64,000 nt of DNA from the NCBI GenBank assembly GCA_963839705.1, contig CAWIWL010000021.1:127380-191379 (forward strand). Direction: 5' to 3'. Below, one piece after another: positions 36,945-53,305 of the stretch. The translations under genes were made by a program, and so were the position numbers. Position 1 is the stretch's first letter. Each line of letters starts with the position of its first letter. The notes below the pieces were generated by a model. That model was not told where the DNA came from. It saw only the letters and a list, made by a program, of their open reading frames with translations, and searched no databases. This DNA is from an uncultured Acidobacteriota bacterium. Lineage in GTDB: Bacteria > Acidobacteriota > Vicinamibacteria > Vicinamibacterales > 2-12-FULL-66-21.

Positions 36945-39368
36945 TCACCCCTCGCGCAACGCACTTGCCGGATCGAACTTCGTCGCGCGACGCGCGGGAA
37001 GGAAGCTCGCCAGGGCGGCGCTCGCGCCGAGCGCCAGTGCGACAGAGCCGAGCGTCACCGGATCGAAGAGCGTCACTCCGAAAAGCTGCCCTTGGATGAA
37101 CCGCCCGAGGGCCAGCGCGGCGATCAGGCCAACCACGATCCCGGCCGCCGACAGCCCAAGTGCCCGGCCGACGATCATGCGCAGCACATCGCCCGGCACT
37201 GCCCCGAGCGCCATGCGAATGCTGATTTCGCGAGCCCGCTGCGCCACGGCGTAGCTCGTGACACCGAAGACGCCGATAGCCGCCAGCGCGAGCGCGACGG
37301 CGGCAAAGAGCGACAACAGGCTGGTGTAGAAACGGGGCCGAGCCATCGATCTCATGACGAGCTGCCTCATCGGTGTGATGTCGGCAATGGCCAGGTCCGG
37401 ATCCAGCGCGCGAATCTCGGTTCGAATCGCGGTCGCGAGTGCGGCCGGATCGCCCGTCGCCCGGACGACGATCTTGACGGACCGGATCGTCCGTTGCGCG
37501 AACGGCACGAAGAGCATCGGCACGGCAGGCTCGGCGGGGCTCCGCTGCAGCACGTCGGCCACGATCCCTACGACTTCGCGCGCGACGCCGTTGGTATTCA
37601 CACGCTTGCCAAGCGGATCCTGGTCTGCGAACCAGCGCCGGACGGCGGCCTCGTTGGCGATCACTACGCGGGGCGCCTCCGTGTGGTCCTGGTCGGTGAA
37701 CGGACGTCCGCGGCGTAGCGGTGCACCGATGGCCCGGAAATAGTCGGGCGTGGCGCTGGCCACGGCGATCTCGGGGTTGACGTTCGGCGGCGGTGGCGGT
37801 GCGCCTTCGACCGCGAAGCCGACCATCGAGCCGCGGCCGCTGAGCGGCAGCACGCTCGTCGCGGCTACCGCGCCAACGCCGGGAAGCGCGCGCAGACGTT
37901 CCTCGAACTCGGCGACCCGAATCCGGGTCGGTCCGTCCTGACGGTACTTTTCGCCCTGCAGCGTCACGCGAAACGAGAGCGCCTGTTCGGCCCGGAAGCC
38001 GGGATTGACGCGGGTCAGCTGGATGAAGCTCCTGACGAGCAGTCCCGCACCGACGAGCAGCACGACCGCCAGCGCCATCTCTGCTACAACCAGCGCGGCC
38101 CGCATGCGCTGTCCGCCCCCGCCGCCGTAGCCACGAGTGCTCTCGCGCAGTGCGTTCGGCAGGCGTGTGCCGCTGAACTGCAGCGCCGGCAGGACCCCGA
38201 AGGCCAAACTGGTCGCGAGCGCGATCGCAAGAGTGAACGAGATCACGACGGCGTTGACGCCGACCTCTTCGAGGCGCGGAAGGTCCGCGGGCTGCATCGC
38301 GACGAGCGCACGCGTCGCGAGGTAGGCGATGCCGAGGCCGGCCATGCCACCGGCCAAACCGAGGACGGCCGATTCCGTGAGGAGCTGGCGCAGCAGCCGT
38401 ACGCGGCCAGCGCCGAGAGCGGAGCGAACGGCCAGCTCTGCCTGGCGCGCCGAGGCGCGCGCGAGGAGCAGGTTGGCGACGTTCGCGCAGGCCACGAGCA
38501 GCACGAAGCCGACGGCGCCGAGGAGCACCAGGAGCGGCCTCCGAACGTCGCCGAGTATCACGTCGTTGAGCGAACGAGCGTTGAACGTCAGGGTGTCGTT
38601 GGTGTCGCGAAACTCCGCCTGCAACTGTGTACCGATGCGGCGCAAGTCGTCGTCGACCTGCGCGAGGGCCATGCCCGGTCTCGCCCGTCCAATGACGGTG
38701 AGGAACTCCCCTCGCCTTCCTTTCGCGGTTCCGGCGCTGAACGTGTCGTTGTACACGAGCGGTGTGTAGATCTCCGCATCGTCGAGCAGTCGCGCGCCAG
38801 GGGCCAGCACGCCGACGATCTCGACCGGCGCGCCGGCGATTGTGACCGTACGGCCGAGCACGCTCCGGTCGCCGCCGAACTGGCGCTGCCAGAACCCGTG
38901 GTCGAGCACGGCCACGCCAGCCCGTCCCGGTTGGTTCTCGCCGGGAACCGGGGTGCGGCCGAGCGCGACCGGCAACCCAAGCAGGCCGAGCAAGCCATCG
39001 CTCACGTTCGTTCCGCGAACCTCACGAGGCTCGCCGGCGCCGAGCATCGTGTAGACGCCGCCCGAATACGCTTCGACCTGCTCGAGCGTCCGCGTGTGCT
39101 CGCGGACGCTCATGAAGTCGGGCGGAGACAGCGGGTAGGGCGTGCCGTCCGGATAGAGCGTCGTCACGCGATACAACCGGTCCGCATCGTTGAACGGGAG
39201 CGGCGCCAGCAGCACGCCCTGCACGACGCTGAAGATCGCGCTGTTTGCTCCGATCCCCAGGGCCAGGGTCGTCAAGGCCACGGCTGTAAAGCCGGGCGCG
39301 CGGCGCAGCATGCGCAGCGCGTACTCGATGTCCTGGCGAAGCTCCCTCATGTATTCGGTTTGTGCCAT
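36945..39368 (-). CDS. ADOP-family FtsX/MacB-like permease (no adjacent PadR gene)
   Basis: 807-aa intact ORF. MRELRQDIEYALRMLRRAPGFTAVALTTLALGIGANSAIF. Two FtsX modules. Confidence 0.9.
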   Translation of the reverse strand: MAQTEYMRELRQDIEYALRMLRRAPGFTAVALTTLALGIGANSAIFSVVQGVLLAPLPFNDADRLYRVTTLYPDGTPYPLSPPDFMSVREHTRTLEQVEAYSGGVYTMLGAGEPREVRGTNVSDGLLGLLGLPVALGRTPVPGENQPGRAGVAVLDHGFWQRQFGGDRSVLGRTVTIAGAPVEIVGVLAPGARLLDDAEIYTPLVYNDTFSAGTAKGRRGEFLTVIGRARPGMALAQVDDDLRRIGTQLQAEFRDTNDTLTFNARSLNDVILGDVRRPLLVLLGAVGFVLLVACANVANLLLARASARQAELAVRSALGAGRVRLLRQLLTESAVLGLAGGMAGLGIAYLATRALVAMQPADLPRLEEVGVNAVVISFTLAIALATSLAFGVLPALQFSGTRLPNALRESTRGYGGGGGQRMRAALVVAEMALAVVLLVGAGLLVRSFIQLTRVNPGFRAEQALSFRVTLQGEKYRQDGPTRIRVAEFEERLRALPGVGAVAATSVLPLSGRGSMVGFAVEGAPPPPPNVNPEIAVASATPDYFRAIGAPLRRGRPFTDQDHTEAPRVVIANEAAVRRWFADQDPLGKRVNTNGVAREVVGIVADVLQRSPAEPAVPMLFVPFAQRTIRSVKIVVRATGDPAALATAIRTEIRALDPDLAIADITPMRQLVMRSMARPRFYTSLLSLFAAVALALAAIGVFGVTSYAVAQRAREISIRMALGAVPGDVLRMIVGRALGLSAAGIVVGLIAALALGRFIQGQLFGVTLFDPVTLGSVALALGASAALASFLPARRATKFDPASALREG

Positions 39369-39545: not shown

Positions 39546-39581
39546 GGCACTACGGACAAATGAAAAACGCTCTCGTTGCTC

Positions 39582-40901
39582 TTACTTCCATTCGAACGGG
39601 AACAGTCCGCCGGCACGGCGCGCGTCCAGTTCGATGCCGGCCAGCGCGGCGGCTCGCGCCAGTGCCGGGTCGCGCCCGGCGGCGAGGTCCGCGCCTGTTG
39701 GCAGGAGCAGTTCGTCTGGAACCACACCGGCGCCCTCGAGGCTTCGGCCGTCCGGCATTACGATGTCCGCGTCGGTCACGAGGAACTGATAGAAAAGCGC
39801 GACGGGGTCGCCCTGCACGAACGGATGGATTCGCGCTTCCATGACCGCACCCGACGAGCGATCGCCGATCACCACGCCGCGCTTCTGCAGTTGGACGGTG
39901 CGGGCGAAGATCTCCGCGGACGAGCCGGATGCCCCGTCCACCAGGACGATCAACTTGCCGGTGAATGCTGCGTCGCCGCGGCCCTTCGCGGTGATCGTGG
40001 CGCGTCCTTTCCGGCCGACGCGCGTGCCGATCGTCACTTCCGTGCTGAAGACGTTGGCCACCATCCGGTGGAGCGCCGTCATGAGTCCGCCGGCGTTGCC
40101 GCGGAGGTCGAGGATGAGCGTGCCCTGCTTCTTCGCGATCCCGAAGAGCTGATCCACTTCGGCGTTCTCGATCAGGAAGTGGGGCATCTTCCAGATCATC
40201 ACTTTGGCTTCCTCTATGTAGCGCTGTCGCGACCGCCGCGCGACGTCCTCCATGCCGCGCTCGAGCTCCTGGATCTCCATGCCGGCGCCGGGACCGGTCA
40301 GATTACGCACGGCCCGCCCAGGAGTCACCGTGGTCGCGACCGCGACGACGCGTTCTGCGCCCGAGGGGTCGCGCAGCTCGAGTCTCGTCGTCGGCTGCGG
40401 CTGCAGGATGTTGAGCAGGTACCACATCCGGAAGAAGCTTTCGCGGCCGACGCCGCCGCTGTTGAGCGACAGCAACTGGTCCCCTGCGTGTACCTTCGCC
40501 GCCGCATCCGTGCCGGGCCGCACGCGCTCCACGAACACGTTGTCGCCAATCACCATCAGGTGATAGCCGTAGTCGATGGTGTAGGCATGCGGGGGCGGCA
40601 GGAAGCTGGTATGCGAGTCCTTCAGCCCTCCGAGAAACGCAGCTACGAGCGTCAGCCCCGCGTTCATCGTCGGCGCGCTCTTCAGCTTCGCGTCGTACTC
40701 GCGGTATCGCGACTCCAGGTCGAGCCCGCGAAAGGACGGGTCGTAGTAGTTCTTCTTCACCGTCTCGTAGGCCTCGCGCATCATGCCCCGCACCTTGTAG
40801 AGGTCGTTGGCCGGCATGACTGCCGCCGTTTGCGCGGCCGGGCGCACGGCCAGCCCGGCTGTAAACAGCAGCAGTGCGAGACAAGCGCCGAGGCTTCTCA
40901 T
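39582..40901 (-). CDS. S41-family C-terminal processing peptidase with PDZ-like domain
   Basis: The ORF extends to 41306, but the signal peptide starts at ATG 40901 (MRSLGACLALLLFTAGLAVRPAAQ). LILDLRGNAGG and LVDGASGSSAEIFA blocks are typical of S41. Confidence 0.85.
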   Translation of the reverse strand: MRSLGACLALLLFTAGLAVRPAAQTAAVMPANDLYKVRGMMREAYETVKKNYYDPSFRGLDLESRYREYDAKLKSAPTMNAGLTLVAAFLGGLKDSHTSFLPPPHAYTIDYGYHLMVIGDNVFVERVRPGTDAAAKVHAGDQLLSLNSGGVGRESFFRMWYLLNILQPQPTTRLELRDPSGAERVVAVATTVTPGRAVRNLTGPGAGMEIQELERGMEDVARRSRQRYIEEAKVMIWKMPHFLIENAEVDQLFGIAKKQGTLILDLRGNAGGLMTALHRMVANVFSTEVTIGTRVGRKGRATITAKGRGDAAFTGKLIVLVDGASGSSAEIFARTVQLQKRGVVIGDRSSGAVMEARIHPFVQGDPVALFYQFLVTDADIVMPDGRSLEGAGVVPDELLLPTGADLAAGRDPALARAAALAGIELDARRAGGLFPFEWK

Positions 40902-41033
40902 GGGAGGACAGCAAGAGGATAGCGCATCGGAGTCTTCGGATTCTGGCTGTACGATGCGGCAGTCTGGAACGTTAAGGTCACTCTGTAGTGAACGACCGGA
41001 GAGGTCCGTCTCAAAAGAAAGGAACATACTGAA

Positions 41034-43165: not shown

Positions 43166-43828
43166 ATGAGGGCTATTGGGAGACGTTCGATGTCGTCGGT
43201 GCTCACGGTCGTGCTGAATGCGTTGTGGTACCTCGTCGCCATCTTCCTGGCGATCACGGTCGGGCTCGTGTTCACAGGCGTGAATGTTGGCCTTCACATC
43301 GACTTGGACGGTCCCTCCGTCGACGCCGGTCCGAACGCCGCGATGAGCATCCCGGTGGTACTGGAAGTGGATGCCGCAACACACCGTGTTACTGCTCCAT
43401 CACTTGGCGTCGATGACGCGCAGCTTCGCAACGTGACCGGAGCGTTGAGGTTTCCAGCGCGCAAGGGTCCGCTCTTCATCGCGAACCTGGCGATTGTTGC
43501 CGGTTGGCTCATCCTCGGTTTGTGGGTGCTCGGCCAGCTGCGTGGCCTCTTCCGGGCCCTCGGCAACGGCAAGCCATTCGTGCCGGCCAACGCGACGCGT
43601 GTTCGACGGATTGGCTGGGCGGTCATCCTCGGCGAGCTCGCGCAGTCGGCGGTGATGTTCTTCGAGAACTACTACGCCATGACTCACTTCTCGGCCGTTG
43701 GTTTCACCTTTGACGCCAGGCCACAAGTCAACGTGTTCGCGATCATCAATGGACTGATCATCCTCGTCATCGCCGAAGTCTTTCGCGAAGGGACGCGTCT
43801 CGATGAGGATCGGTCGTTGACGATCTGA
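43166..43828 (+). CDS. DUF2975 family membrane protein
   Basis: 220 aa with four hydrophobic helices. The pattern VLNALWYLVAIFLAI... and the C-terminal EVFREGTRLDEDRSLTI are typical of DUF2975 (partner of YozG-like regulators). Confidence 0.8.
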   Translation: MRAIGRRSMSSVLTVVLNALWYLVAIFLAITVGLVFTGVNVGLHIDLDGPSVDAGPNAAMSIPVVLEVDAATHRVTAPSLGVDDAQLRNVTGALRFPARKGPLFIANLAIVAGWLILGLWVLGQLRGLFRALGNGKPFVPANATRVRRIGWAVILGELAQSAVMFFENYYAMTHFSAVGFTFDARPQVNVFAIINGLIILVIAEVFREGTRLDEDRSLTI

Positions 43829-43836
43829 GCACGCAC

Positions 43837-44063
43837 ATGGCCATACGAATCAAACTCGACCATCTTCTGCTCGATCGTCGTCTTTCGCTCACCGATCTGG
43901 CCGACGCATTGGCATCACGATCGCGAACCTGTCCGTGCTGAAGACTAACAAGGCTCGCGCCATTCGCTTCTCGACGCTTGAGGCACTCTGTCGAGAACTG
44001 AACTGCCAGCCTGGTGATCTCCTGGAGTGGACACGCGACGACGGCAAGACACGCGCGGAGTGA
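43837..44063 (+). CDS. XRE/Cro-type HTH transcriptional regulator (YozG-like); one frame change
   Basis: MAIRIKLDHLLLDRRLSLTDLADAL then, after a 1-nt loss in a G run (43910-43912), GITIANLSVLKTNKARAIRFSTLEALCRELNCQPGDLLEW. Both halves fall below the ORF-track size cut-off. Confidence 0.75.
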
Positions 44064-44432: not shown

Positions 44433-45816
44433 GTGCGTACTGTGCGAGTGTTGAGATTGGTCACGCTGGTCGCCTTGGCGGCTGCATCGACGACGGTGGT
44501 GGCGGCACAGGCTCCGCCGCCCGCCCCGGCTGAGTCGACAGTCGCGCGTGCGGGTCAGGCGGCCACTCCCAACGTCGACAATGCTGCCGGCAAGCCCGCC
44601 AGCGACGTTGGGACCGGACAGGGAGACAACTCCGGGTCAGAGCAGTCACCGACGGCCAAGGTGGCGCCGCCGCAGACCTCAACCGCATCGACGCGTCAGG
44701 CGGCGATCGAACAAGAGCAGGCAGCCAAGGTGCCAACCCTGCACCCTTACGTTCCCAATAAGGCGGAAGGGTACTTCGAGAGGCTCGACAAGATTCTGCA
44801 GGGTAGCGGACTCCCCTGGCATCCGTTCTTCGAGAGCGCGTACTCGGGCGGCGGCTTCACCCTCGGCGTGGGCCGTGCCTTCGACGTCAGCGCCTACAAC
44901 AGGCTCGACTTGCGCGGCAGCTACACCTTCACCGGCTACAAGCGCATCGAGGCCGAGTTCCTGGCGCCACGCATGTTCAACCGTCGCGCGGAGCTCTCGG
45001 TGATCGGCGGCTGGCGCGAGGCGACGCAGGTCGGCTTTTACGGCGTCGGTCCAGACACCACGTTAGACGACGAGACGAACTATCTCTTCCAGCAGCCCTA
45101 CGGTTCGGCGCTTTTCACCCTCTTTCCGAACCGCCGCCTCTTCATGCTGCGCGGTGGCGCCGAGTTCTCTCAATGGAAGCAGGAACCTGGTGAGGGCTCA
45201 ACGCCGTCGGTCGAGGAGCGCTACACGCCCGAGACGCTCCCCGGGCTGGGCGCCAAGGTCGACTACCTGCACACGCAGGGGTCGATCGGGCTCGACGGGC
45301 GCACGTCGCCCGGATACAGCCGCCGCGGCGGGTACCTCGCGGCGCACGCTGCACGACTACAAGGATCAGGACGACAACTTCGGCTTCCAGATGGTCGAAT
45401 ACGAAGGGATTGCGCATCTTCCGATCCTGCGCGAGACCTGGGTCCTGTCGTTCCGCGCCCGGATGCAGCACGCCAACGAGAAGGACGGCCAGCAGATCCC
45501 CTTCTTCATGCTGCCGGCACTCGGCGGCGGCTCGACGCTGCGCGGCTACGCCAGCTGGCGGTTCCGCGACCAGAACAGCCTGCTGCTCCAGGCGGAGTGG
45601 CGCATCATGGTCAACCGCTATCTCGATATGGCCTTCTTCTACGACGCCGGCAAGGTTGCGGCTTCCACGAGGAACATCAATCTCGACAACCTGCAAGACG
45701 ACTTCGGCTTCGGCCTCCGCTTCCACGGGCCGTTTGCCACGCCGCTCCGCGTCGAGCTGGCGCACAGCCGCGAGAGCGACTCAGGCTCATCTTCTCGTCG
45801 TCGGCCTCCTTCTTAG
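44433..45816 (+). CDS. Omp85/BamA-family outer-membrane barrel protein (no obvious POTRA); about three frame changes
   Basis: GTG start, signal peptide, low-complexity N-terminal region. Barrel-like region continues from the frame of 44433 (..SPGYSRRGGYL) into ORF 45154..45816 (TLHDYKDQDDNFGF...GGGSTLRGYASWRFRD...). The family-like C-terminus LRLIFSSSASF is again in the first frame. Confidence 0.7.
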
Positions 45817-45825
45817 GTAACCGTC

Positions 45826-47534
45826 ATGTCGACTTCAACTTTCTCGACCCGCACACGCCGCCCGGCCTCCTCGTGCTCGTCTGTCGTCGCGCTGAGCCTG
45901 TTCTCCGGCTCGGCTTCGACGCAGAGCCCGCGTTTCTACCCCGACGATCCGATTGCGCGCGAACCGGAATCGCAGGACGCCTCCAAGGCGGCGCCGCACG
46001 ATCCATCTCAGATGTACGAGCTGGTGTACAACCTCTTCGTCACCTCGAAGTACAAGCCGAGCGGCCTGCGCGCAAAAAACATCAACACTATCGACGAGGT
46101 GCCCGACTCGAGCTGGTTCACCAACCGCGTCGGCGTCGCGGCCACTCACAACCGAAGAGCTCCTTCGCGGCCCGAATGTCGGTGAGCCGCCCGATCCGTC
46201 GAAGTGGGTACTGATCAGAGAGAAGACGGCGGGCGCGCATCCGGGCTTTACCGCGATGGACGCCAAGGGCCATACCTGGTTCCTCGAGTTCGACCCGCCG
46301 AAGTTTCCGGAGGGCGCGACCGCGGCGGTCGCGATTGCCACCAAGATCTTCTGGGCGCTCGGCTACAACCAGGTCGAATCGTTCCTGACGACGTTCGATA
46401 CGAAGAACACGACGATCGATCCGAATGCGACGGTGCGCCGTCCGAACGGCAAGCGAACGCCGTTCACGCAAGACGACATGAACGCCATCCTGGAGCGGGT
46501 CAAGCGCAACAAGGACGGAAGCTATCGCGTCATTGCTGGACGCCTGCTGCCAGGCAAGCTTCTCGGCCCCTACCAGTACAAGGGCACGCGTCCGGACGAT
46601 CCGAACGATCTGGTTCCGCACGAGCATCGGCGCGAGCTGCGAGCGCTGCGCGTGTTCGGCGCCTGGACCAACCTCACCGACCTCAAGGCCGCGAACTCGC
46701 TCGATACGCTCGTCACCGAGAACGGCAAGACGATCGTCAAGCACTACCTGCAGGACGTCGGCTCCACGTTCGGCATGTGCAATGGCTTCCACGAATGGGA
46801 CCTCGAGCTGCGAGTACTTCATCGAGGGCGCCGCCGTCGCGCAAGCGCCTCTTCACCCTCGGGTTCGGCCTGAGCCCGTGGCAGACGGTCGACTACGTCG
46901 AGTACCCGTCGGTCGGCAAGTTCGAAGGCAAGGTCTTCGATCCGAGAACATGGCGGCCCCAGATGCCGACGACCGCCTACATGGAGCTGCGCGATGACGA
47001 CGCGTTCTGGGCGGCGCGCCGCGTGGCGGCATTCACCGACGAGCTGATCAGGGCCGTCGTTCACACCGGGCAATTCAGCGATCGCGGCGGCCGAGAAACA
47101 TCTGGCTGACGTGCTGATTCAGCGGCGCGAGAAAATCAAGAGCATCTATCTGACGCAGGTCAACCCGATCGTCAACCCGACGCTGGATGCCAAGGGCCTG
47201 ACCTTCGAGAACGCTGCCGTCACCGGCGGCGTCGCCCAAGGCACGGTGGCCTACCGCGCCTCGTGGATGTCCTTTGACAACGCCACCGGCGCGACCAAGC
47301 CGATCGCGGAGACCAAGGGCACGACCACGACCATCGCCGCGCCGGCGGGGTTGCCATCGAGCGGCTTCGTGGCCGTCGACATCGCTGCCGACAGCGACAC
47401 GTATCCGACGTGGAAGAAGCCCGTGAGGGCCTTTTTCCGCCAGGACGGCGCGCGGCTGGAAGCTGGTCGGGCTCGAACGGATGGGCGACACGACCCCGGC
47501 CGGACAACCGGCCCCACAGAAGGCGGCGAAGTAG
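45826..47534 (+). pseudogene. Secreted ~570-codon protein of unknown family with protein-kinase-like catalytic motifs; five frame changes
   Basis: Signal peptide then PRFYPDDPIAREPE. Sense is traceable through five frames (switches near 46135, 46800, 46825, 47078, 47450). TDLKAAN at 46676-46696 and LQDVGSTFG at 46748-46774. Stop TAG at 47532-47534. Confidence 0.6.
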
Positions 47535-47553: not shown

Positions 47554-49575
47554 CTATCGCAGCACGCTGCTGCTTTCAGCCTCTCGAACCAGCCGATCGG
47601 CATCGTCCGGCAACAGGAAGCGCTCTTCGACGAGGCGCGTGGCGGCGGCGCGGACTTTGGCAACGTACTCCGCGTGCGAACCGTAACGTTCCTCGAGTGA
47701 CGGGCGAGGGTCACTCGCCGCGATGCGCTCGGCCTTTGTTCGCGCGAACGGGATGAATCCGCCTCCCAGGGACTGAATGCGTCCCTTGAGGAATCCTCTC
47801 GCGATTGGATTCCAGCCCGTGTATGTGCCGAGCGGCGCCTGGAGGAGGACGCTGCGAACTCCCGCCGTTTCGTTGCCGTCGGCATCGACACGTGGCACGA
47901 GCATCGGCAAGGTCTGACGAACGATTGGCGGTTGAAGCGTCACGATTCCGGACTCATCGGCATTGCGGAACCCCGGCCCGAAGTCGTAGTCGTAGAACGG
48001 CACGATGACACCGTCGGGAAGTGGCTGGCCGGGGATGATGGGAAACCCACTGGCCGCCTGTGTGGGCGGCACCAGATCGCCACGATCCATTCTCGGGTAC
48101 CGGCTCGGAGGGGGCGGCGCGTCGCGCACGACCCAGTCGACCAGGGCGATCATCAGCGCACGGTGGGCTTCGGCCGACGAGTTCGGATTCCCCGCGAGCA
48201 CGCAGCACGCGTCGGGCGTGGCGTTCGGCGAGAATCCGCCTGGCCCGCCGCCATGACGGACGCCAGCCATGTAGTACCGGCGCACGTTCGCAGGGAGTGG
48301 AATGTCGCGGTCCGCGCGGGTGCCGACGAGGTCGGGCGACATCCGGAGCGAGTAGAACTCGGCGGAGCCGAAGGTTTCGACGATCTTCGGGCACATGCCG
48401 GTGGCGCGGCAACGTGCCAGCAGGCTCGACGAGGAACGGCCTCGCGCCGTGTCCGAGTAGTCGTCCCACCACAGCGTGCCCTCGCTGCCGGGTTCGAACA
48501 TCTCGGCCGCGCCGCTCGGCGCGGCGAAGCGGATGTTCATCGAGAGCTGACGCGCGGCGATGTGCGCATTCATCCCGTCGAACACTCGCTGACCGCGCTC
48601 ATCCTGGTTGAAGCCGAGGCTCACAAAACTGCGAAGGTAATTGCCGGACTGGGAGGTGCCCTGCGCGACGGTGTGCCGTACGGTTCCCCCGAGCGGGTTT
48701 GTGGCGCCTTCCTTTCTGAGGAAGGCAATCAGGTCGCGCGTTGCGGCGAAGCCGACGCCGTGCACGGGCGGGTCCTTCGCGACGTAGATCAGTTCGTAGA
48801 GAAAGGCCGGGTCGAAACCGCCCTTGAGACACACCTTGATGGGGTCGGGCTGTCCCGGAAAAGGCGTCTGCGTGCAGTCGGCGAACGCCCAATCCGAGGG
48901 CGCGATTGCGACGCGGCTGCCGTCTTCAGTGGTCCGCCGTGTCAGCGTGGCCGTCGTCGTGTCGAAGCTCGCCGGCGTGGCGGTTCCAGTCACGCGGCCA
49001 CGAACGATCGGCAGGGTGGTCGTTCCAGCAGGCATGTCGAGGAATCGCGCCATCACCGGGCCGGTGATGCTCGAGCCGTCCGGGTTTTTCGCGATCGGCG
49101 TCACCATCGACTCGACACCTGGCCCGGGGGCGATGTCTGCCTGCCAGCCGCTGGCCACAAGCGTGTGACCGGCTGCCCTGAAGTCGGCGTAGAACCCGCC
49201 GCCTTCCACCGTCTGCCGGCCTCGGTTCGGCACCTGATAGACGATGACACCCGTCGACTTGTCCATGTCAACGGGCTTCAGGATGATGAACGTCGCGGAA
49301 TACTCGACCATGCCGCGGTCGTTTCGCGGGGCCAGTTCGATGTCGGTGATGATCGCGTTCAGCTTGTGGCGCGGATCGAGCTGTCCGTAGAAACGACCGG
49401 TCAGCTTCTCGTAGGCGATTCCCTTGCTGGCGAAGGCTTGTCGCTCGTCGACGACGAACCTGACGACCTCCGCGCGCGCCGGCACGCCGAGGATGAGGAG
49501 GAGCGCAGCGATCGAAGCCGTCCGGGCTGGAGTCCGCATGGCGCGGATGCTATGCCAGAACGCTGGTTGCATCAA
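47554..49575 (-). CDS. Secreted alpha/beta-hydrolase-domain-like protein (large uncharacterised family)
   Basis: 673-aa intact ORF. The probable start is ATG 49539 (MRTPARTASIAALLLILGVPARA). The N-terminal block VVRFVVDERQAF..GIAYEKLTGRFYGQLDP..NAIITDIELAPRN..GMVEYSATFIILKP matches a family I remember as annotated only as alpha/beta hydrolase domain-containing. Confidence 0.55.
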   Translation of the reverse strand: MMQPAFWHSIRAMRTPARTASIAALLLILGVPARAEVVRFVVDERQAFASKGIAYEKLTGRFYGQLDPRHKLNAIITDIELAPRNDRGMVEYSATFIILKPVDMDKSTGVIVYQVPNRGRQTVEGGGFYADFRAAGHTLVASGWQADIAPGPGVESMVTPIAKNPDGSSITGPVMARFLDMPAGTTTLPIVRGRVTGTATPASFDTTTATLTRRTTEDGSRVAIAPSDWAFADCTQTPFPGQPDPIKVCLKGGFDPAFLYELIYVAKDPPVHGVGFAATRDLIAFLRKEGATNPLGGTVRHTVAQGTSQSGNYLRSFVSLGFNQDERGQRVFDGMNAHIAARQLSMNIRFAAPSGAAEMFEPGSEGTLWWDDYSDTARGRSSSSLLARCRATGMCPKIVETFGSAEFYSLRMSPDLVGTRADRDIPLPANVRRYYMAGVRHGGGPGGFSPNATPDACCVLAGNPNSSAEAHRALMIALVDWVVRDAPPPPSRYPRMDRGDLVPPTQAASGFPIIPGQPLPDGVIVPFYDYDFGPGFRNADESGIVTLQPPIVRQTLPMLVPRVDADGNETAGVRSVLLQAPLGTYTGWNPIARGFLKGRIQSLGGGFIPFARTKAERIAASDPRPSLEERYGSHAEYVAKVRAAATRLVEERFLLPDDADRLVREAESSSVLR

Positions 49576-49983: not shown

Positions 49984-52900
49984 ATGTCCCGTGTTATTCG
50001 TTCCCATTCATAGCCGTCGTTGTTGCAACGTTCGCGGTCGTCCTGCTGGCACGCTCCACGGCCCCGCTCCAGGGCCAAGGCCAGCCGTCGCCTCCCACGC
50101 CGCGCAGGTCGCACCGTTCGTGGGCGACTGGCTCGTGACGCTCGCCTTCATGGCGAACGAAGCCACCTTCGCCGTTGCCGTGAAGACCGACGGCGGCAAG
50201 GTGTCGGCGACGATCAGCTCCGACGGACAGCCGACCATCAACGTCACAGACATTTCGGTCGTCGCCAACAGGCTGGTGCTCAAGTACATGACCGAGGCCA
50301 TGGGCACGCCTCTTTCGACAGTCTTGACGCTGACGCCAGAAGGGCAGGGCCTCCGCGCCAACATGGCGGTCATGGACGGCCAGTACGAGATGTCCGGCAC
50401 GGGCGCCAGGCAGGCCCCCGGCGCGCCGGTGCGTGCGACGGGTTTCGGCGGCGGCGGGCGGGGTCGGCGACGAGCGACGCGACCGATTTCTCGCCGAAGC
50501 CCCCGTATCGTCCGCGCACGCCAGCCGAGGAGGCCGCCGGATTCATCCTGCCGACGGGATACCGGATGGAGCTCGTCGCGGCGGACCCCGACGTGATCAG
50601 CCCGGTCGCTCATCGAGTTCGACGGGAACGGACGCATGTACGTCGGCGAGATGATCAGCTACATGATGGACGCCGAGGCCAGCCGCGAACACGATCCGAT
50701 CAGCCGCATCAGCCGCTGGGAGAGCACGAAAGGCGACGGCCGCTACGACAAGCGCACGGTGTTCGTCGACAAGCTCGTCGCGCCCCGCATGATCCTGCCG
50801 CTCCAGGACGGCGTCATCCTCACGAGCGAAACCGACTCGGACGATCTGGTGAAGTGGACCGACACGAACGGCGACGGCGTCGCCGACAAGCGTGAAGTCG
50901 TCTTCACCGGCATCGGCCAGAGCGGCGACGCCAACATCGAGCACCAGAAGGCGGGCCTGCTGTGGAACATGGACAACTGGATCTACACCACCTACAACCC
51001 GTTCCGCATCCGCTGGACGCCGTCCGGGTTCCTGCGCGAACCGACGGGGCCGAACGGCGGCCAGTGGGGCCTCGCGTCGGATGACGATGGGAAGCCGTGG
51101 TTCGTGGATGCGGGCGGCGAACGCGGCCCGATGAACTTCCAGTATCCGATTCACTACGGCGCGTTCACGCCCTGTGCGCCGGCGGGCCGCGGCGGCCGCG
51201 GCGGTGCGCCTGCGGCGGCGCCACCGCCACCCAATCCGAACTGCCCGCCGGGGATGGAGAACGGATTCGAGAAGGACTTCGCCGTCGTCTGGCCCGCGCC
51301 GGGCATCGGTGACATGCAGGGCGGGCATCGGGCGAACGCGGATGCCGGCGCAGAACCTGAATCACTTCACCGCGACGACGGGCCCCGCGATCGTCCGCGG
51401 CGACGCGCTGCCGGCCGATCTGAAGGGCGATCTGCTCTTCGCCGAGCCGGTAGGCCGCCTGATCCGGCGCGCGTCCATCGAGAACATCGAAGGACTGACC
51501 CAGCTGCGCAACGTGTATCCCGGGGTCGGAGTTCATCAACAGCGTCGACCAGCTCTTCCGGCCGGTGAACATCAGCAACGCCCCCGACGGCACGATCTAC
51601 ATCGCCGACATGTACCACGGCATCATCCAGGAGCGGCAGTGGTCGGGTCCGGGTTCGTACCTGCGCGCGAAGATCGAGCAGTATCAGCTGGACAAGGTCG
51701 CGTCGCACGGCCGCATCTGGCGCCTGCGCTACGACGGTCGCGCCGCGGCGCCCGCCACCGACACGAACATCGGACAGCCGGCGATTCCGGCGATTCAGCC
51801 GAAGTTCGCGCCGCCGCGGATGTACAGCGAGACGCCCGCCCAGCTCGTCGCGCACTTTGCGCATCCGAACGGCTGGTGGCGCGACACGGCGCAGCGGCTG
51901 CTGGTGTTGAAGCAGGACAAGTCGGTCGTGCCGGCCTTACAGCAGATGGTGTCGCCTTCGCGACCTGGGACTCGCGCCGTCGCTTCGGCGAACCTCGCCG
52001 TAGCCGAAGGCGAAGGCGGGCGGTCGTCGGATAACTGCTGGCCCGGTTCCACGCGATGTGGACGCTCGAGGGCCTCGGCGCTCTCGACGCCACGCTGCGT
52101 ACGTGAGGCCATGAAGGACACGAGCCCGCGGATGCGCGTGCAGGCGATTCGCGCGAGCGAGACGCTGTACAAGGCGGGCGACAAATCGTTTGCGGACGAC
52201 TACCGCTCGCTGACGAAGGATGCCGACGAGAACGTCGTCATCCAGGCGATGCTGACGGCGAATCTCTTCAGGCTGCCGGACGCGGCCGAGGTGATCAAGG
52301 CGGCGCAGGCCGCGACGAAGGCGAAAGGCGTGGCGCTCGTCGGCGAGCGTCTGCTCGATCCCGGCGACCACGAGCTTCGGCGGCGGCCGGCAGGGGCCCG
52401 ATTACACCGGACGAGGAGAAGCGGCTGCAGCAGGGGAACGAGGTCTTCGGCGCCGTCTGCTCGGCCTGTCATGGGGCGGACGGGACGGGGAAGGCCATGG
52501 AAGGCGCGCCTCCGGGCACGATGATGGCGCCACCGATTGCCGGCTCGCCTCGGGTGCCGGGGCATCGCGACTACGTGATCAAGGTTGCTGCTTGGCGGGC
52601 TCACCGGACCTCTGGATGGGAAGACGTACCGCGACGTCATGGTGCCGATGGGCGGGACCGACGAGTGGGTCGCGGGGATCGCGTCGTACGTCCGCAACAG
52701 TTTCGGGCACAGCGCGCGGCATGGTGACGCCAGCCGACGTCGCGCGCGTGCGCACCGAGATGGCCGGCCGCAAGAGCGTATGGACCATTCCCGAGCTCGA
52801 AACCTCGCTGCCGCGGCTGCTCGACGCGCAGCAGTGGAAACTGACGGCGAGCCATGCCGCCGACACGGCGTCGGGCGCCGCTTCGCTTCGCGGATGGAGC

Positions 52901-53292
52901 TCCGGCGCACCTCAGGCGCCGGGATGTGGTTCGCCGTGGAGCTGACGCAGCCGGTGGTCGTGACGGAGGTGCAGTTCGACTCGAACACGTCGTTCGGCCG
53001 CGGCGGACGTGGCGGCCGCGGCGCACCAGGGGCAGCGCCAGCGCCACCTGCCGCACCCGTCATCGGATATCCCCGCGGCTACACAGTGCAGGTATCCGCC
53101 GACGGCACGACGTGGAGCAAACCGGTTGCAACAGGCAAGGGCGAGGGGCAGCGCACGACCATCACCTTCGCGCCGACGCGCGCCAGGTTCGTCCGGATCA
53201 CGCAGACGGACGCCGTCGCCGACGCGCCCGCGTGGTCCATCAGGAACTTGCGAATCTACGAGGCGCCGGCGGTCAGGGCGGCTTCGCGTTGA
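49984..53292 (+). pseudogene. PVC-type heme-binding CxxCH protein with C-terminal discoidin (F5/8 type C)-like domain; 13 frame changes
   Basis: Signal peptide, extra N-terminal domain, propeller region (IEFDGNGRMYVGEM..., NISNAPDGTIYIADMYHGIIQE), HEAT-like region (LLARFHAMWTLEGLGAL), cytochrome c (AVCSACHGADG) and discoidin-like end (MWFAVELTQPVVVTEVQFDSN...IRNLRIYEAP). These are spread over all three frames, with switches near 50010, 50095, 50460, 50610, 51325, 51522, 52033, 52098, 52362, 52407, 52585, 52715 and 52922. Confidence 0.75.
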
Positions 53293-53305
53293 TCTTCCGT
53301 TCCGG

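Follow-up and report, generated by a model that had tools for sequence, protein, structure and literature searches.

The window examined here is a stretch of 64,000 nucleotides (nt) from an uncultured Acidobacteriota bacterium (GenBank assembly GCA_963839705.1, contig CAWIWL010000021.1, positions 127,380 to 191,379). Between positions 44433 and 47534 on its plus strand lie two consecutive genes that, on balance, we take to form an operon: the first encodes an Omp85 barrel without POTRA domains and the second a Sec-exported protein with a protein-kinase-like fold, which the barrel would export, display or dock. Judging from its predicted fold, the second protein represents a new family within the kinase-like superfamily and is coupled to Omp85 proteins of the noNterm class. 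Full-text literature searches returned no paper linking Omp85 or two-partner secretion (TPS) with kinase-like or HipA-like proteins.

Gene pair and intact orthologous locus

The genes were delimited with a six-frame list of open reading frames (ORFs) and a three-frame translation of 44.4-47.6 kb, in which both genes extend over several frames. The Omp85 gene (44433..45816, plus strand) begins with a GTG codon at 44433 and ends, in the corrected frame, with a TAG codon at 45814-45816. After frame correction its product is approximately 460 amino acids (aa) in length, starts with a signal peptide (MRTVRVLRLVTLVALAAASTTVVAAQA) and ends in ...LRLIFSSSASF, as the initial annotation of this DNA had read it. 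A spacer of 9 nt (45817..45825, plus strand) separates the Omp85 stop codon from the start codon of the second gene, which points to operon-type coupling. This second gene (45826..47534, plus strand; ATG at 45826, TAG at 47532-47534) encodes an exported protein of an unnamed family that we place in the HipA/Fam20/CtkA branch of the kinase-like fold. The frame-corrected protein has a signal peptide and 567 aa, in good agreement with the earlier estimate of a secreted protein of about 570 codons starting some 10 nt downstream. A scan of 43.8-47.8 kb for promoters and terminators found nothing exceeding shuffled expectation.

An intact orthologous locus is present in ENA ERZ25039555 (365 kb; hereafter L001), which shares synteny with the window from 36.4 to 55.9 kb (approximately 95% nucleotide identity). 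Its Omp85 protein is 461 aa and its kinase-like protein (P0001) 567 aa in length, and the spacer between the two genes is again 9 nt. The frame-corrected window protein is 93% identical to P0001 over its full length.

Family and fold of the kinase-like protein

The initial annotation was unable to name the second protein, and no curated family model fits it: comparison with Pfam, NCBIfam and PDB sequences, using both the single sequence and a 50-sequence profile, gave no significant match. The PDB matches of the profile were to designed armadillo repeats (E >= 0.1) and were judged spurious. The family is nonetheless very large. The frame-corrected 567-aa query has more than 7,600 homologues at 90% clustering, all of which are annotated as 'hypothetical' and none of which has a Pfam domain. 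In an exhaustive HMMER search of cluster representatives (50% identity), 3,684 clusters were retrieved at E <= 1e-3 and 1,004 at E <= 1e-30.

An AlphaFold2 model of P0001, built from an alignment of 50 diverse full-length family members (A1), has a mean predicted local distance difference test (pLDDT) score of 91.5 and a predicted template modelling (pTM) score of 0.90. When this model was compared with the PDB using Foldseek, the significant matches were kinase-fold proteins, the top ones with probabilities of 0.9-1.0. The best match is the Caenorhabditis elegans Fam20 Golgi casein kinase (4kqa/4kqb; E 6e-5, probability 1.0), and the secreted Helicobacter pylori kinase CtkA (3akk) is also retrieved (E 4e-3, probability 0.99), with a template modelling (TM) score of 0.48-0.52 by target length. 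Further matches include Fam20C/Fam20A, PI4KII-alpha, PINK1, amicoumacin kinase and a bacterial kinase complex (7vkb). On the strength of its modelled bilobal fold, the protein is thus predicted to be a member of the protein-kinase-like superfamily, as the initial annotation had proposed from two short motifs. No Pfam match places it within Fam20 itself: the likeness to Fam20 is structural only, at approximately 10% identity.

The sequence signals that do exist point in the same direction. Among the 50 family members, sub-threshold Pfam matches were found to HipA_2 (10/50) and HipA_C (8/50), and these fall on the N-lobe in the right order (profile positions ~4-90, protein residues ~122-226). 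The best HipA scores (PF07804 / PF20613), 19.2 bits against a cut-off of 27 and 15.7 bits against one of 30.5, come from relatives only; members of the window clade have no HipA Pfam match. Since Fam20 kinases are described as distant relatives of HipA (PMC6829671), the signals from structure and from sequence are mutually coherent and indicate one branch of the kinase-like superfamily.

Domain layout was assigned by mapping the secondary structure of the P0001 model to the sequence. In the model, the protein is made up of an N-terminal segment, a bilobal kinase-like domain, a helical region and a C-terminal beta-sandwich. A Sec-type signal peptide (residues 1-~32, ...LFSGSAS/TQS; 45826..45921, plus strand) is recognized in the sequence and is modelled as a helix at residues 13-26 with low pLDDT. 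It is followed by a conserved N-terminal segment (residues 35-105; 45928..46128, plus strand) that consists of PRFYPDDPIAREPE...DAS, a helix and NINTIDEVPDSSWFTNR. Residues N87, V92, S95, W97, N100 and R101 of this segment are at least 90% conserved, and its DDP and DA show no variation among 20 paired sequences (A2, an aligned subset of 64 fusions of Omp85, linker and partner). The segment is modelled packed against the kinase domain (pLDDT ~95) and is a candidate for the element through which the Omp85 partner recognizes or docks the protein.

The N-lobe (46204..46360, plus strand), as defined by the secondary structure of the model, comprises beta1 (residues 127-132), a Gly-rich loop (residues 133-141, K133-x-x-G-x-x-P-G-F), beta2 and beta3 (residues 140-155, with TWFLEFD in beta3) and alphaC (residues 163-178). 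The strands of the C-terminal beta-sandwich domain lie at residues ~447-550 (47168..47490, plus strand), and local Foldseek matches of this domain are to a monobody and other beta-sandwich chains (ranks 11, 21 and 37). In four family members (P0257, P0225, P0151 and the 1158-aa P0154, encoded at L085:428-3904), C-terminal extensions of 200-600 aa without a Pfam match were observed. Lipobox signal peptides are present in approximately 20 of 95 full-length family representatives.

Catalytic motifs and two subfamilies

The motifs on which the initial annotation rested are exactly where it had placed them. The catalytic-loop motif T-D-L-K-A-A-N (D285, K287, N290; 46676..46696, plus strand) has the D-x-K/R-x-x-N spacing of HRDLKPEN, and the DFG-equivalent metal-binding motif L-Q-D-V-G-S-T-F-G (D310-V-G, residues 310-312) follows at 46748..46774 (plus strand); the region 46676-46774 as a whole translates to TDLKAANSLDTLVTENGKTIVKHYLQDVGSTFG. 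In approximately 140 cluster representatives with mutual identity <= 50%, the conservation of these and nearby residues is high: D285 85%, K/R287 84%, N290 89%, D293 92%, H306 95%, D310 97%, F311 68% (Val in the window clade) and G312 83%. The family consensus is NHxDxxxxN ... DFG. Of the four residues that had been singled out, the two aspartates and the asparagine are kept in most representatives, and the lysine of D-x-K is either Lys or Arg across the family rather than a fixed Lys. The proposal that the order and spacing of the motifs are those of a kinase-like catalytic loop and DFG is upheld by the predicted fold and by residue conservation.

Short patterns such as D-x-K-x-x-N ... D-x-G occur frequently and the protein has no match among curated family models, so that a chance occurrence in an unrelated fold had to be considered. 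We regard this as very improbable: the high-confidence model resembles kinase-fold structures, the motifs sit at the expected catalytic loop and beta8/DFG turn of that model, their residues are conserved family-wide, and the N-lobe yields the weak HipA matches described above. The model, the Foldseek matches and the family-wide conservation effectively refute it.

The family falls into two subfamilies that differ at the active site. Type A proteins have the full canonical set, namely beta3 K154, alphaC E/D168, H283-x-D, R/K, N and DFG; family-wide, K154 is conserved in 68% and E/D168 in 66% of representatives. Type B proteins, which form the window clade, have E/Q/S154, V/I/L168, L283 and DVG. 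In the window protein itself, Glu154 replaces the beta3 Lys, Val168 the alphaC Glu and L283 the His of HxD (codons 46273-46275, 46315-46317 and 46670-46672, respectively), and DVG replaces DFG. The four changes (beta3 Lys, alphaC Glu, His of HxD and Phe of DFG to Val) co-vary and define a large subfamily. Both types occur within Vicinamibacteria metagenome-assembled genomes (MAGs), each with its own Omp85 partner. Type B proteins retain D285, K287, N290, D310 and G312 in 75/76 loci, down to 45% identity, and are therefore under selection at the catalytic loop despite the missing ATP-anchoring ion pair. As the beta3 Lys/alphaC Glu pair is missing, nucleotide binding or chemistry in type B is probably atypical, judging from these sequences. 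Fam20A and WNK-type kinases are precedents for such active-site variation.

The most conserved block of the family, TRPDDPNDLVPHEHRRELR (residues 254-272; 46586..46642, plus strand), lies directly before the catalytic loop. Within it R255, D258, D261, H265, R268, R269 and R272 are invariant, and the block, a candidate for metal or substrate binding, is more strongly conserved than the kinase motifs and has no nameable counterpart.

These features bear on whether the protein is a phosphotransferase at all. The kinase-like fold may instead serve, at least in the window subfamily, as a pseudokinase, a binding module or a catalyst of other chemistry (AMPylation, for example, or the modification of glycans or lipids from a different donor). 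The type B residues at positions 154, 168 and 283 and the DVG motif are in keeping with this, as is the fact that the most conserved block is not a canonical kinase motif; the pseudokinase Fam20A is among the closest structural relatives, and ATP is scarce outside the cytoplasm. Nevertheless, retention of the five catalytic-loop and metal-binding residues in all but one of 76 subfamily loci is unexpected for a dead enzyme, and the sister subfamily has the full K / E / HxD / N / DFG set. We consider a non-phosphotransferase role somewhat unlikely.

The Omp85 barrel

The barrel region recognized by the initial annotation is borne out by the Pfam Omp85 model (PF01103, cut-off 24), which scores 36.3 bits on the C-terminal fragment of the window protein and 35.3 bits on the intact L001 orthologue. 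The protein is organized as a signal peptide, a low-complexity A/P/Q-rich linker (disordered in the model), two short helices and a barrel of approximately 16 strands. An AlphaFold2 model of the close homologue P0271, which has low confidence (pLDDT 59) and is therefore used for strand count and fold class only, shows 15 strands at residues 143-455, with only two helices before them. The best Foldseek matches of this model are the BamA and TamA barrels (E ~4e-10). Omp85-superfamily proteins are characterized by a conserved (V/I)RG(F/Y) motif in loop 6 and by an aromatic beta-signal residue at the C terminus. In this group 40 homologues share an unvarying loop-6 motif, GGGSTLRGY (G364-G371), and the C-terminal residue is Phe.

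No POTRA domain was detected by Pfam in the window or L001 proteins, nor in the P0271 model. Neither protein matches the ShlB/FhaC barrel (PF03865) with its two POTRA domains; the sole ShlB match is that of a distant barrel (locus L082), which is sub-threshold (E 0.064). Scores against the BamA (TIGR03303; 23.6 bits vs a cut-off of 297) and TamA (NF047950; 10.8 bits vs 625) models are far below threshold; the proteins of these two families have five and three POTRA domains, respectively. By predicted domain content, with no domain detected N-terminal to the barrel, the protein fits the noNterm Omp85 class.

Coupling of the two genes across genomes

A search of one genome per species yielded at least 591 encoded relatives. 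The best 80 of these are all annotated as Acidobacteriota, mostly Vicinamibacteria/Vicinamibacterales MAGs, except for two evidently odd-labelled bins. Among the closest relatives, 81/81 Vicinamibacteria loci, one of them (L081) in a Luteitalea MAG, have an Omp85 homologue as the next gene upstream, in the same orientation. The spacers between Omp85 and partner are mostly -4 to +13 nt. In 71 loci the identities of the Omp85 protein and of its partner to the L001 pair co-vary (Spearman rho 0.91). As seven of the genomes in this set have more than one distinct pair (two or three), the correlation indicates that the pairs diverge as units.

Five distant family members on metagenome contigs (31-38% identity, 45-66% GC) were also inspected. 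An Omp85 gene is located upstream of the kinase-like genes in L083, L085 and L086. In L082 (394-8136, 45% GC) Omp85 is followed by two tandem kinase-like lipoprotein paralogues that are 67% identical. The arrangement proposed in the initial annotation is thus conserved in all 81 Vicinamibacteria loci and on four of the five distant contigs. Directly after the two paralogues in L082, and at this single locus, is a 925-aa gene product that fuses a TLC ATP/ADP transporter with HEAT repeats; this neighbour is intriguing given the question of ATP supply to an extracytoplasmic kinase.

In an alternative reading, the kinase-like protein would not be exported across the outer membrane, and would be a periplasmic or outer-membrane-anchored accessory subunit that docks on the POTRA-less barrel and supplies its missing periplasmic module, much as BamD does for BamA or TamB for TamA, with a role in outer-membrane biogenesis or signalling. 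The barrel is BamA/TamA-like rather than TpsB-like and has no POTRA domain. About one fifth of family representatives are lipoproteins, the typical state of accessory subunits of the machinery for beta-barrel assembly (BAM), and the N-terminal segment is packed on the kinase domain in the model (pLDDT ~95) instead of forming a free secretion signal. A role of noNterm Omp85 proteins in membrane-protein biogenesis has been suggested by Heinz and Lithgow (PMC4104836). On the other side, conservation of the catalytic-loop and metal-binding residues favours an enzyme over a scaffold, and the presence of several cognate pairs per genome is a trait seen more typically in transporters dedicated to a particular cargo than in machinery with a housekeeping role. 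An accessory-subunit role is, in our view, unlikely.

Proposed mechanism

We favour the operon model with which we began, in which the barrel handles its kinase-like partner. Both proteins would cross the inner membrane by the Sec pathway, as their signal peptides suggest, and the barrel would then insert into the outer membrane, consistent with its loop-6 RGY motif and C-terminal aromatic residue. There it would act as a dedicated partner that either translocates and displays the kinase-like protein at the cell surface in a manner similar to two-partner secretion, as the initial annotation had suggested, or holds it at the outer membrane. Strict gene coupling and the co-divergence of cognate pairs suggest this step, and a dedicated exporter, display platform or docking partner is the most likely role of the barrel based on these genomic patterns. 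The kinase-like protein may then perform a phosphotransfer-type reaction on an extracytoplasmic substrate using D285/K287/N290 and the metal-binding D310. We infer this last step from the modelled fold and residue conservation.

Several observations weigh against this model. The hallmarks of TPS are missing, as the barrel is without POTRA and the passenger without a TPS domain, and by Foldseek the barrel is closer to BamA/TamA than to FhaC; its own model is of low confidence. The TM-scores of the kinase-like model are modest (0.3-0.5), and no sequence profile matches it at a curated threshold. In type B proteins, including that of the window, three canonical residues are missing (beta3 Lys, alphaC Glu and His of HxD). 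ATP is not known to be available in the periplasm or in soil water, making a classical kinase reaction there problematic. The pairing is also not universal: for the distant member in L084 (2768-4450, 32% identity), the nearest 2.7 kb are without an Omp85 gene and only small ORFs are present upstream. Finally, neither protein of the window pair can be made from the sequence as assembled (see below).

A broader proposal is that these genes represent a previously unrecognised outer-membrane export or display system, in which POTRA-less Omp85 proteins each handle one cognate Fam20/HipA-like enzyme in either soluble or lipidated form. We put this forward tentatively, and at present hold it to be doubtful.

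Frameshifts in the window copy

Insertions and deletions (indels) were placed by alignment to L001. The initial annotation had noted three and five frame changes in the two genes, and both counts are correct as numbers of uncompensated 1-nt indels (all on the plus strand). The Omp85 gene has an extra G at 45344, is missing one A at 45780..45781 and has an extra C at 45812, right before the stop codon. The kinase-like gene has an extra base at 46135, an extra C at each of 46804 and 46829, an extra T at 47082 and an extra C at 47451. Two compensating pairs are also present: +1/-1 at 44996/44998 in the Omp85 gene, and -1/+1 at 45863/45878 in the kinase-like gene, within the signal peptide.

Indels are not confined to this pair. 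The DUF7133 gene (49986-51970) has 7-8 and the gene for a 438-aa cytochrome-c/F5_F8-type protein (51968-53297) has 8 when compared with the intact L001 orthologues. A single indel is present in each of the beta-lactamase, HTH_26 and 470-aa genes; in order of position, the sites are 41518, 43904 (the one in HTH_26, a 1-nt deletion in the window) and 53601. Genes for MacB (36945-39368), an S41 peptidase (39577-40906) and Abhydrolase_10 (47554-49575) have none. The distribution is patchy and tracks gene boundaries. Directly upstream of the pair, at 43166-44063, the HTH_26 (Xre-type) regulator gene is accompanied by a gene for a DUF2975 membrane protein, an arrangement that is the same in L001.

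Two explanations of the frameshifts, both raised with good reason in the initial annotation, were weighed: errors in the assembly consensus, or real mutations in this strain that have turned the pair into pseudogenes, with functional loss of the module. The density of the indels suits the latter, with 8 uncompensated indels in 3.1 kb compared with 0 in the flanking MacB, S41 peptidase and Abhydrolase_10 genes (~5.7 kb combined), and one copy is possibly dispensable as genomes often have two or three paralogous pairs. The ratio of nonsynonymous to synonymous substitution rates (dN/dS) against L001 is likewise elevated, at 0.28 for the kinase-like gene and 0.48 for the Omp85 gene vs 0.02-0.18 for unbroken neighbours (other broken genes: 0.20-0.32). 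These ratios are still well under 1, however, and because substitution errors accompanying indel errors would raise dN/dS just as relaxed selection would, they were not used to decide between pseudogene and artefact. In addition, seven of the eight uncompensated indels are single-base insertions at non-homopolymer sites; such insertions are atypical for natural bacterial indels and typical for long-read assembly consensus errors. The same pattern, with 7-8 indels per gene, is seen in several unrelated window genes, and related MAGs with 'contig_N' names also give broken tblastn matches in the Omp85/kinase-like pair. A metagenome collection was scanned for the window sequence at the 46804 and 46829 insertions, with and without the extra bases, and no match was found. 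The insertion type and the broken matches in related long-read-style MAGs lead us to favour a consensus-error artefact as somewhat more likely than a recently inactivated pair. Genuine pseudogenes are a serious possibility that we nonetheless lean against.

Significance

If the broader proposal of an unrecognised export or display system is true, diderm soil bacteria (Acidobacteriota and other lineages) would possess an extracytoplasmic kinase or kinase-derived activity. The system would in that case amount to a new secretion subclass of type-V-like character and, at the same time, to a bacterial equivalent of the secretory-pathway kinases of eukaryotes. The role of noNterm Omp85 proteins becomes testable, as each barrel has a single, strictly coupled and well-folded candidate client. 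A very large unannotated family with export signals and retained kinase catalytic residues also opens the question of bacterial extracytoplasmic kinases comparable to Fam20C, and the presence of canonical and variant subfamilies within Vicinamibacteria MAGs offers a route to how kinase folds change upon loss of the Lys/Glu anchor for ATP. Acidobacteriota dominate in soil but are poorly understood, and the family is abundant in the soil members of this group; assigning it a function would provide an annotation for thousands of 'hypothetical proteins'.

Comparison with known systems

The best structural matches to the kinase-like model are the Fam20 / Four-jointed secretory-pathway kinases (Fam20C Golgi casein kinase, Fam20B and Fam20A). 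As is predicted for the window protein, these are kinase-fold proteins with signal peptides that act outside of the cytosol, and Fam20A, which is without canonical catalytic residues, parallels the division of the kinase-like family into two subfamilies. Both groups are distantly related to HipA (PMC6829671). The differences are considerable: identity in the structural alignment is approximately 10%, TM-scores are 0.3-0.4 and there is no Pfam Fam20 match. Fam20 proteins are eukaryotic, work in the Golgi lumen with imported ATP and have no Omp85 partner, and neither the N-terminal segment nor the C-terminal beta-sandwich is a Fam20 feature.

HipA and CtkA (JHP940) provide the sole sequence-level signal (the sub-threshold HipA_2 and HipA_C matches on the N-lobe) and, in the case of CtkA, the best TM-score (0.48-0.52). 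HipA and the kinase-like family also have in common the D-x-x-x-x-N catalytic loop, with a metal-binding Asp located downstream of it. All scores, however, are under the Pfam gathering thresholds (<= 19 bits vs 27-30). HipA is a toxin of the cytoplasm that has HipB as its antitoxin partner, whereas the kinase-like proteins have Sec or lipoprotein signal peptides, no HipB-type partner and a unique invariant R-x-DDPND-x-x-PH-x-x-RR-x-x-R block.

In genetic organization the pair resembles two-partner secretion (type Vb), as it is an operon of an Omp85-superfamily barrel and an exported partner in which cognate pairs are duplicated as units. Barrels of the window clade, in contrast, have no POTRA domain or ShlB/FhaC match and are nearest to BamA/TamA, and the partner is a globular enzyme-like protein without a TPS domain rather than a beta-helix. 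TpsA passenger features were sought with Pfam at E up to 1 and no match was found, and the model is of a bilobal alpha/beta kinase-like domain with a beta-sandwich. As neither of the two defining type Vb features is present, the Omp85/kinase-like pair is not a type Vb two-partner secretion system.

TamA-TamB and BamA have the closest barrel fold. They also share the principle of an Omp85 barrel with a dedicated extracytoplasmic partner, which for TamA-TamB is encoded adjacently. They differ in that the window barrel scores far under the model cut-offs and has no POTRA domain, and in that the kinase-like partner is unrelated to either TamB (DUF490) or BamB-E.

The noNterm Omp85 proteins are a class described by Heinz and Lithgow in 2014 (PMC4104836). 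In Leptospira interrogans, lipoprotein genes lie downstream of those for noNterm Omp85 proteins, and a TPS-like export has been proposed (Sci Rep 2024, PMC11358297). The Leptospira partners are DUF1566 and Big/integrin lipoproteins and not kinase-like proteins, and the barrels are compared here by architecture. In that respect the window pair is similar: it has a 16-strand barrel without POTRA domains and, as in Leptospira, the gene for an exported protein lies downstream.

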